A stretch of 64,000 bases of DNA, from the NCBI GenBank assembly GCA_021648145.1, contig JAKITI010000002.1:135888-199887 (forward strand), in the 5' to 3' direction. The notes under the pieces were generated by a model. It saw only the letters and a program-made list of their open reading frames with translations. It searched no databases and was not told where the DNA came from. Below are positions 16,573 through 17,499 of the stretch, one piece after another; position 1 is the stretch's first letter, and every line of letters starts with the position of its first letter. Position numbers and translations under genes: made by a program. The DNA is from Gammaproteobacteria bacterium. Lineage in GTDB: Bacteria; Pseudomonadota; Gammaproteobacteria; JAADGQ01.

Positions 16573-16634
16573 ATCAATGGTGTTGCTTGCGGTAGAGTGC
16601 GCTTTAGCAATATTTACAAACTAATGGAGAAAGT

Positions 16635-16916
16635 ATGTTATTTGAATGGGGGGAAGAGAAAAACAAAATAAATTTGCAGAAGCATTATATGCCCCTTAAA
16701 GCAGGGGTTCCTGTTTTTAATGACGCTAATGCTATTGAATTTGAAGATAATAGGTTTGATTATGAAGAAAACCGCTACATTCTTGTTGGTTATGATAATC
16801 GAACTAAACTTCTATATGTTGTTTATACAATGAGAAGTGTAAATATTACAAGGCTAATTTCAGTAAGAAAGGCAACTAAAAGCGAACGTATGCTTTATGA
16901 GTCGGGAGGCTATTAA
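16635..16916 (+). CDS. brnT: BrnT-family (DUF497) type II toxin ribonuclease
   Basis: MLFEWGEEKNKINLQKH...FDYEENRYILVGY...LLYVVYTMR...ITRLISVRKATKSERMLYE matches the BrnT/DUF497 pattern. AT-rich relative to flanks. Confidence 0.75.
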   Translation: MLFEWGEEKNKINLQKHYMPLKAGVPVFNDANAIEFEDNRFDYEENRYILVGYDNRTKLLYVVYTMRSVNITRLISVRKATKSERMLYESGGY

Positions 16917-16917
16917 G

Positions 16918-17112
16918 ATGGACAAAATTATGAAGCAAGAACACTCCAAAGAAAACCCAATAGATAATAATGATATTGATTTTTCTAAAGCAGATGCTTT
17001 GACGGAAGAAGAAATTGAGGAAAATGCAAAAAGTGATCCGGACTCCCTGCCATTTACGGAAGAACAGCTAAAGAAGGTCAGTATTAAGCGGAGAAATAAG
17101 AGCAGTGGATAA
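16918..17112 (+). CDS. BrnA-like antitoxin fragment 1 (N-terminal TDEEI...DPDxP module only; RHH domain absent)
   Basis: ATG 1 nt after the brnT stop. ...ADALTEEEIEENAKSDPDSLPFTEEQLKKVSIKRR then stop where the ribbon-helix-helix would begin. Confidence 0.45.
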   Translation: MDKIMKQEHSKENPIDNNDIDFSKADALTEEEIEENAKSDPDSLPFTEEQLKKVSIKRRNKSSG

Positions 17113-17287
17113 AAAAACAATTAAAGATTATAGCGTGGGGTCATTAATAGTCACTGATTATAATGTAAGTAAAATTCGTCTCATGAGTGACTACGAATCG
17201 GAAAAAAGAGCAAATTCAGACCCCGACTCCCCTGTAATAAACCTTAAGTTTGCAAAGAAAATAAGTGATAAACGTAAAGTGGAGTAA
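17105..17287 (+). CDS. BrnA-like antitoxin fragment 2 (tandem paralogue of fragment 1)
   Basis: GTG start overlapping fragment 1 by 8 nt. Aligns with fragment 1 (MDK...D[FY]xxSK...E[EK]xAxSDPDSP...KK[VI]SxKR[RK]) and also lacks the RHH domain. Confidence 0.4.
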   Translation: MDKKTIKDYSVGSLIVTDYNVSKIRLMSDYESEKRANSDPDSPVINLKFAKKISDKRKVE

Positions 17288-17499
17288 TGCTAAAAAGGCA
17301 TTATACTGGACTCAGCATGCTTTTTGCAAAAACACGCAAAAAGGCACACCAACATACTCAGCTAGTGAATGCGGTGTTATAAATTAGTCTCAGTATTTCT
17401 AGGTTAATTTTAGCGAGGGAACGAAAGCACTAGGATCAGGTAAGCAGGATAAGGTTGTTGGGGCTGGCCTGGTCATAATAACAAAAAGGAGAAGTAAAA

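Follow-up and report, generated by a model that had tools for sequence, protein, structure and literature searches.

The miaA-hfq junction

The DNA analyzed here, referred to as the window, is a 64,000-nucleotide stretch from a gammaproteobacterium (contig JAKITI010000002.1, positions 135,888 to 199,887, forward strand). Between miaA and hfq, the gene for a global RNA chaperone, the window carries three genes on the same strand: a brnT-type toxin gene, followed by two small genes, designated A1 and A2. Their products correspond to BrnA antitoxins in the N-terminal half only and have no detectable DNA-binding domain (Table 1). One nucleotide separates the brnT stop from the A1 start, and A1 and A2 overlap by 8 nt. 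The list of open reading frames (ORFs) gave the second ORF as 16897 to 17112, but every homologue begins at the internal ATG at 16918, giving a product of 64 amino acids (aa).

Table 1. Features of the miaA-hfq region of the window
Feature	Coordinates	Strand	Remarks
miaA (tRNA dimethylallyltransferase)	15634..16572	+	PF01715 IPPT, E 2.3e-89; left flank of insertion
miaA-hfq spacer	16573-17499		927 bp; three co-oriented ORFs inside
~60 bp 5' of brnT	16573-16634		Includes TTAGCAAT
Inserted AT-rich cassette, ~0.8 kb	16575..17390	+	Approximate boundaries
GTTAGCAAT-like element	16601-16612		~25-35 nt 5' of brnT start
brnT-type toxin gene	16635..16916	+	93 aa; PF04365; Shine-Dalgarno GGAG at 16626-16629
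A1	16918..17112	+	64 aa, acidic, isoelectric point (pI) 4.8; BrnA N-terminal module only; Shine-Dalgarno GGGAGG at 16904-16909
A2	17105..17287	+	60 aa, basic, pI 9.3; GTG start; paralog of A1
Insert 3' tail	17288..17391	+	Hairpins, without U-tract terminator
Native hfq-proximal leader	17392..17499	+	Aligns to L005 hfq upstream region
hfq	17500..17730	+	76 aa; PF17209, E 2e-30; right flank of insertion
hflX, then hflK	From 17799 (hflX)		Downstream of hfq; from ORF list

The BrnT toxin

The brnT product matched PF04365 over the entire model (positions 1 to 77 of 77; 78.6 bits, cutoff 34.5; E value, 4.4e-22), in agreement with an earlier interpretation of the locus, made from the letters and ORFs without database searches (the sequence-only reading), which had named a BrnT/DUF497 toxin. 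In PHROGs it matched phrog_4399, "ribonuclease toxin" (E value, 7e-18). With an AlphaFold2 (AF2) model of the protein (predicted local distance difference test [pLDDT] score, 89.6; predicted template modeling [pTM] score, 0.78), the sole significant Foldseek match in the Protein Data Bank (PDB) was 7vd7_A (template modeling [TM] score, 0.80; root mean square deviation, 2.0; 32% identity), and a profile of the BrnT family retrieved 7vd7 (E value, 7e-18) and the 3u97 BrnT (E value, 3e-4). By sequence and predicted structure, the product belongs to the BrnT/DUF497 family (COG2929) with a RelE-like RNase toxin fold, in which short helices pack against a beta-sheet scaffold.

For Brucella abortus BrnT, a review names Asp6, Glu7, Lys9, Arg41, and Glu78 as residues important for RNase activity (PMC5086665, citing Heaton 2012). 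In the 3U97 profile alignment, they correspond to G6, E7, K9, R47, and E84 of the window BrnT. Four of the five residues are kept, with glycine in place of Asp6. Invariant positions in a 28-sequence family alignment are W5, K9, H17, R47, and E84. The stretch KHYMPLKAG (residues 16 to 24), previously singled out as divergent, is indeed there, but KH(Y/E)MPLKAG is typical of the entire clade and is not damage at this locus.

A1 and A2 are related to the N-terminal half of BrnA

A1 and A2 align with each other over their full lengths (BLASTP identity, 36%; E value, 3e-6; profile-profile probability, 97.7%), which, with their 8-nt overlap, bears out the earlier description of two tandem overlapping paralogs. 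In hhalign comparisons with BrnA proteins that contain a ribbon-helix-helix (RHH) domain, the A1 family aligned to BrnA residues 3 to 62 only (99.3%; E value, 4e-20) and the A2 family to the same region (97.3%; E value, 2e-11). The proposal that both ORFs are homologous to the BrnA N terminus and stop where the RHH domain would begin thus holds. Only A1 and A2 matched an RHH-containing BrnA profile among 1366 stop-to-stop ORFs of the window (E values, 6e-15 and 7e-4). A1, A2, and BrnA share the core E-x-E-x-R-A-x-x-D-P-D-x-P. The more extended BrnA motif that the sequence-only reading had assigned to both ORFs (TEEEI...SDPDSLP...EEQLKKVSIK) is complete in A1, but A2 has SDYESEKRANSDPDSP...FAKKISDK instead. 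Judged by these alignments, A1 and A2 are ancient paralogs, each equivalent to the N-terminal, non-DNA-binding half of BrnA.

The A1 homologues (approximately 20) are nearly all 60 to 69 aa long, with one 84-aa outlier, and have a conserved core, TEEEIEE.AK.DPDSLPFTEEQLKK, followed by a basic tail. This is the native length of a conserved protein family, and the earlier designation of the antitoxins as "truncated" is not supported. An A1 family profile gave 512 matches (E ≤ 1e-3) among 1.84 billion representative proteins. Of the best 150 of these matches, 10 are BrnA proteins that match PF14384 and end in an RHH domain, about 15 have the N-terminal motif fused to an XRE-type helix-turn-helix (HTH) domain, and 82 are ≤80 aa and without a recognized domain. 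Three A1-profile matches (P0035, P0086, and P0097) are single polypeptides with two BrnA N-terminal modules each, P0086 also having an RHH domain; they look like an A1/A2 pair joined in one chain. NCBI lists one A1 homologue as "hypothetical protein," and UniRef lists it as "YfhD-like protein." No homologues were found by tblastn with A1 in plasmid and phage collections or by a word-indexed search with A2, and A2 homologues were collected at loci identified through A1 or BrnT.

Neither peptide had a meaningful match in Pfam or NCBIfam, including HTH, RHH, and other DNA-binding families, and neither matched anything in PADLOC or PHROGs. GTP cyclohydrolase II matches to A2 in Pfam and NCBIfam were at chance level, below the cutoffs, and were discarded. 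A1 modeled alone is predicted to form three short helices without a confident tertiary arrangement (pTM score, 0.25), which suggests a peptide that folds upon binding to the toxin. In all four A1/A2 pairs checked, drawn from both BrnT clades described below, A1 is acidic (pI, 4.8 to 5.0) and A2 is basic (pI, 9.3 to 10.3), with a Lys/Arg-rich tail.

Recurrence of the three-gene cassette

Besides the window, 10 places carry an intact tricistron (loci L001, L011, L012, L013/L014, L015, L018, L009, L019, L021, and L022), with brnT of 93 to 94 aa, A1 of 60 to 69 aa, and A2 of 52 to 62 aa. Start positions are conserved, and neighboring genes abut or share a few bases. The BrnT clade of the window includes Microbulbifer sp. 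OS29 (L001), an uncultured Microbulbifer (L013/L014), L011, L012, L015, and the more distant L018; the closest cassette is that of L011, with a BrnT 94% identical to that of the window. The other clade, in which the toxin has the canonical KHGIDF sequence, comprises L009, L019, L021, and L022. The L020 cassette corresponds to those of L019 and L021, with the third gene uncalled. A2 is the conserved third gene in L001, L011, L012, L013, L015, L018, L019, L021, and L022. A metagenome scan with the A1 alignment gave two loci only, L009 and L010.

Elsewhere the neighbors of the cassette include queA/tgt, a prophage and a DUF4062-TPR gene, TacAT or ParE/Phd toxin-antitoxin (TA) modules, and insertion sequence (IS) elements, and the miaA-hfq position is unique to the window among the tricistron loci. 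As these contexts all differ, the cassette is mobile. Its surroundings tend to be variable regions and look like TA or defense islands.

Nei-Gojobori (NG86) ratios of nonsynonymous to synonymous substitution rates (dN/dS) were 0.05 to 0.16 for BrnT, 0.05 to 0.10 for A1, and 0.11 to 0.62 for A2. By this measure all three genes are protein coding and under purifying selection, which is loosest on A2. The same intact three-gene layout in many unrelated genomes indicates a conserved variant rather than a broken copy. Of the two possibilities raised by the sequence-only reading, a variant architecture is therefore supported and a decaying module is not.

Other loci depart from this layout. In L008, a decayed copy, the toxin gene is frameshifted, and an additional 69-aa gene of the BrnA N-terminal type lies directly 5' of it, giving the order A-T-A1-A2 (2458 to 3352). 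L010 has an A1/A2-type pair with no brnT upstream, beside a transposase fragment (442 to 752), which may be an orphan antitoxin pair or an IS-disrupted cassette. Among the intact tricistrons, variable-region settings were seen in L013 (2204 to 3886 and 6782 to 7339; a DUF4062-TPR protein and HP1/P2-like prophage genes), in L015 (1757 to 2552; a TacA/GNAT TA pair and IS elements), and in L019 and L021 (ParE-Phd).

Insertion between miaA and hfq

A genome scan with MiaA identified two relatives, the closest genomes found: L005 (MiaA 82% identical) and L006 (62%), both metagenome-assembled genomes of uncultured Gammaproteobacteria. Each has the order miaA-hfq-hflX-hflK with a miaA-hfq spacer of only ~140 to 150 bp and is cassette free, so their uninterrupted junctions confirm the earlier claim that an insert splits the two genes in the window. 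Homology between the window and L005 reaches the miaA stop and restarts ~110 to 130 bp 5' of hfq, indicating that the native hfq-proximal leader was kept. The short spacers of the relatives identify the miaA-hfq cassette as an insertion of ~0.8 kb, and the alignment places it directly after the miaA stop.

The insert was also correctly described as AT rich: its GC content is 35.3%, compared with 44.5% for the window as a whole, and only 0.3% of segments of equal size reach so low a value. However, hfq is equally AT rich (35.9% GC), and low GC by itself is no marker of foreign DNA in this neighborhood. Neither a target-site duplication nor terminal repeats, including inverted repeats, were found at the insert ends. 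A direct repeat, TGAAT..GGTGTT, was spotted at both junctions, but its score was reached in 170 of 500 shuffles and is not significant. No Rfam family matched in the insert.

Comparison of cassette flanks among loci revealed nothing in common beyond ~40 nt 5' of brnT, where a GTTAGCAAT-like element occurs. This element is the only noncoding sequence conserved among the cassettes (5' of brnT in the window, L012, L003, and L011) and may act as a promoter or operator.

The cassette has the same orientation as hfq and lies directly 5' of the retained hfq leader. No sigma-70-like promoter was found on the plus strand 5' of brnT or hfq, and a scan from A2 to hfq predicted no intrinsic terminator on that strand, so cassette transcripts may run on into hfq. 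The RNA of the insert 3' tail has a predicted folding energy of -29.7 kcal/mol (z = -2.4). In Escherichia coli, promoters inside miaA account for part of hfq transcription. If such promoters also operate here, their transcripts must pass through ~0.8 kb of foreign sequence, and transcripts derived from the cassette could add to hfq expression.

Upstream, a tRNA-Ser(UGA) gene (15498 to 15587) lies 46 nt 5' of miaA and is preceded on the opposite strand by a gene for a YccA/BAX-inhibitor-like membrane protein. The upstream neighbor of miaA is not mutL, unlike in E. coli, and L005 is arranged like the window. The window starts with one ORF of 2840 aa (8 to 8530, plus strand).

Comparison with known systems

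BrnT modules have been described as two-gene systems whose antitoxin has an RHH or, rarely, an HTH domain (PMC11980606, PMC2701414). Canonical BrnA and BrnT assemble into a 2:2 complex, and BrnA uses its RHH domain to repress the promoter of its own operon (PMC10714953, PMC5086665, PMC11980606, citing Heaton 2012). The B. abortus BrnT/BrnA system (PF04365 plus PF14384; 3U97) shares with the cassette the toxin family and a toxin gene that comes first in the operon, and A1 and A2 have the N-terminal module of the BrnA family (TDW...MTEEEIE..A.SDPD..P.T.E.L). In contrast, canonical BrnA is one protein of ~100 aa that dimerizes and has a C-terminal RHH domain, whereas the cassette encodes two proteins of ~60 aa that lack RHH and HTH domains and are unmatched by PF14384, and the cassette toxin has Gly at the Asp6 position.

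Chain A of the Salmonella Typhimurium TA complex 7VD7 is the closest solved structure to the window BrnT. No 7VD7 chain was retrieved in PDB searches with A1 or BrnA profiles, and the structure is therefore uninformative on A1/A2 binding; no publication on it was found in the literature searched. The only solved part of a BrnA N-terminal module retrieved by PDB profile searches was the first ~30 residues of 2PPX (Atu1735). This protein, like P0121, P0068, and P0114, joins the N-terminal motif of A1 and A2 to an XRE-type HTH domain and so has the DNA-binding domain that A1 and A2 lack. Such fusions indicate that the N-terminal module is portable and joins different C-terminal domains.

Aave_1719 of Acidovorax citrulli, a BrnA-like antitoxin, did not bind its own promoter region in an electrophoretic mobility shift assay; it is a single 107-aa antitoxin with reported RNase activity of its own, encoded in a two-gene operon with Aave_1720 (PMC10714953). 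The pair combines a BrnT-like RNase with a BrnA-like partner and sets a precedent for BrnT systems that lack classical autorepression, but it has one antitoxin and two genes, compared with A1 plus A2 in a three-gene cassette.

In PaaR2-PaaA2-ParE2 and omega-epsilon-zeta, a small antitoxin without a DNA-binding domain neutralizes the toxin and a separate DNA-binding regulator is encoded. The third gene of the present cassette is instead an antitoxin paralog without a recognizable DNA-binding domain. SpoIISABC of Bacillus subtilis also combines one toxin with two small antitoxin-type proteins and serves as a lead only; its toxin is an unrelated membrane protein, and the sequences are unrelated.

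In the full-text literature searched, BrnT was either paired with an antitoxin of the RHH or HTH type or fused to its antitoxin, and no description was found of a tandem antitoxin-like gene pair without a DNA-binding domain. The components are familiar; what that literature does not describe is a conserved architecture of three genes, a split into acidic and basic peptides, and the lack of any DNA-binding domain.

Proposed mechanism and alternatives

The locus is best explained, in a judgment somewhat better than even, as a horizontally acquired, intact three-gene type II TA cassette, brnT-A1-A2, in which two peptides free of DNA-binding domains carry the antitoxin function. A1 and A2 would bind BrnT and neutralize it jointly, both being needed, and would supply as separate chains the pair of N-terminal modules that the canonical BrnA dimer joins via its RHH domain, either as an A1:A2 heteropair or with one module on each toxin protomer. 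Classical autorepression through operator binding would be absent. Expression would be constitutive, from the operon's own weak promoter, or would depend on transcription reading through from miaA, and the 1-nt brnT/A1 gap and 8-nt A1/A2 overlap may couple translation of the three genes. The acidic A1 and basic A2 in all checked pairs point to differentiated, probably cooperating roles, and the single proteins with two N-terminal modules (P0035, P0086, and P0097) are consistent with two modules acting as one unit. More ambitiously, and with rather less than an even chance, BrnT-A1-A2 may represent a distinct, widespread class of three-component TA system in which an obligate acidic/basic heteropair replaces RHH dimerization and neutralization is fully separate from operator binding, with free-standing BrnA N-terminal modules of 50 to 80 aa forming a large unannotated family of mini-antitoxins.

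Several observations weigh against an intact cassette that works in this way. PF14384, the Pfam model for BrnA, gave no match to A1 or A2 even at E ≤ 10, which is attributable to a model that begins with the DPD motif and consists largely of the RHH domain. The glycine at the Asp6 position of the window BrnT (D6G; codon 6, 16650 to 16652) may leave the toxin attenuated. In the 28-sequence alignment this position is mostly D, with G in four sequences (the window BrnT, that of the closest cassette, L011, and two further relatives) and S, E, and N once each, and Gly6 may be an attenuating substitution or merely a tolerated residue. Constraint on A2 is weaker in the window lineage (omega of 0.42 versus L011). 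Decayed copies also exist, although they look different from the window cassette: A2 is cut to 33 aa in L002/L003, and A1 is frameshifted and A2 truncated in L016/L017, with brnT kept in all of these. Finally, the basic A2 may bind nucleic acid, in which case autoregulation may persist.

The strongest competitor, unlikely on balance, is that A1 is the sole antitoxin and A2 an accessory third component, which could be a nucleic-acid-binding regulator replacing the RHH domain, an enhancer of neutralization, or an anti-antitoxin or sensor competing with A1. A1 is far more conserved than A2 and closer to BrnA, A2 is always basic with its Lys/Arg-rich tail, and brnT persists in L002/L003 with a truncated A2. 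Yet the core motif shared by A1 and BrnA is retained in A2, an argument for a common binding partner, and a DNA-binding domain is undetectable in it with Pfam and NCBIfam. In L016/L017, moreover, A1 is frameshifted as well, and those loci may simply be decaying.

That the module is a decaying remnant, a duplicated antitoxin without its RHH domain that is heading for elimination, is very improbable, and the comparative sequence data largely refute it. It would account for the missing RHH domain and PF14384 match, the D6G substitution, the raised A2 omega in the window lineage, and the decayed copies elsewhere. It is contradicted by lengths, gene order, and overlaps that recur at 10 other sites, across both BrnT clades and in varied contexts; by dN/dS ratios well below 1 for all three genes; by three intact ORFs in the window with clear Shine-Dalgarno sequences before brnT and A1; and by the prevalence of short proteins among the best A1-profile matches. 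A sequencing or assembly frameshift in an ordinary two-gene brnTA has nothing in its favor beyond the unusual gene sizes and is practically negligible, since a profile of the RHH half of BrnA gave only negative scores in six frames of 16900 to 17520, so that full-length BrnA is not recoverable by frameshift correction as had once been envisaged, and independent assemblies (NCBI, JGI, ENA, and Logan) carry the same two ORFs.

Implications for BrnT systems

The preferred reading, an intact brnT-A1-A2 cassette, bears first on position, as transcription of a global RNA chaperone could, as a possibility at present, be coupled to a mobile TA module. For annotation, it describes a conserved alternative BrnT module, with two paralogous DNA-binding-free peptides after the toxin, that is unseen by four family libraries. 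Such BrnT genes would therefore be called orphans by any TA-finding pipeline that relies on a DNA-binding partner. For mechanism, the cassette would offer a simple system for studying the control of a type II toxin in the absence of operator-bound autoregulation and the reasons for keeping two copies of one binding module that differ in charge.

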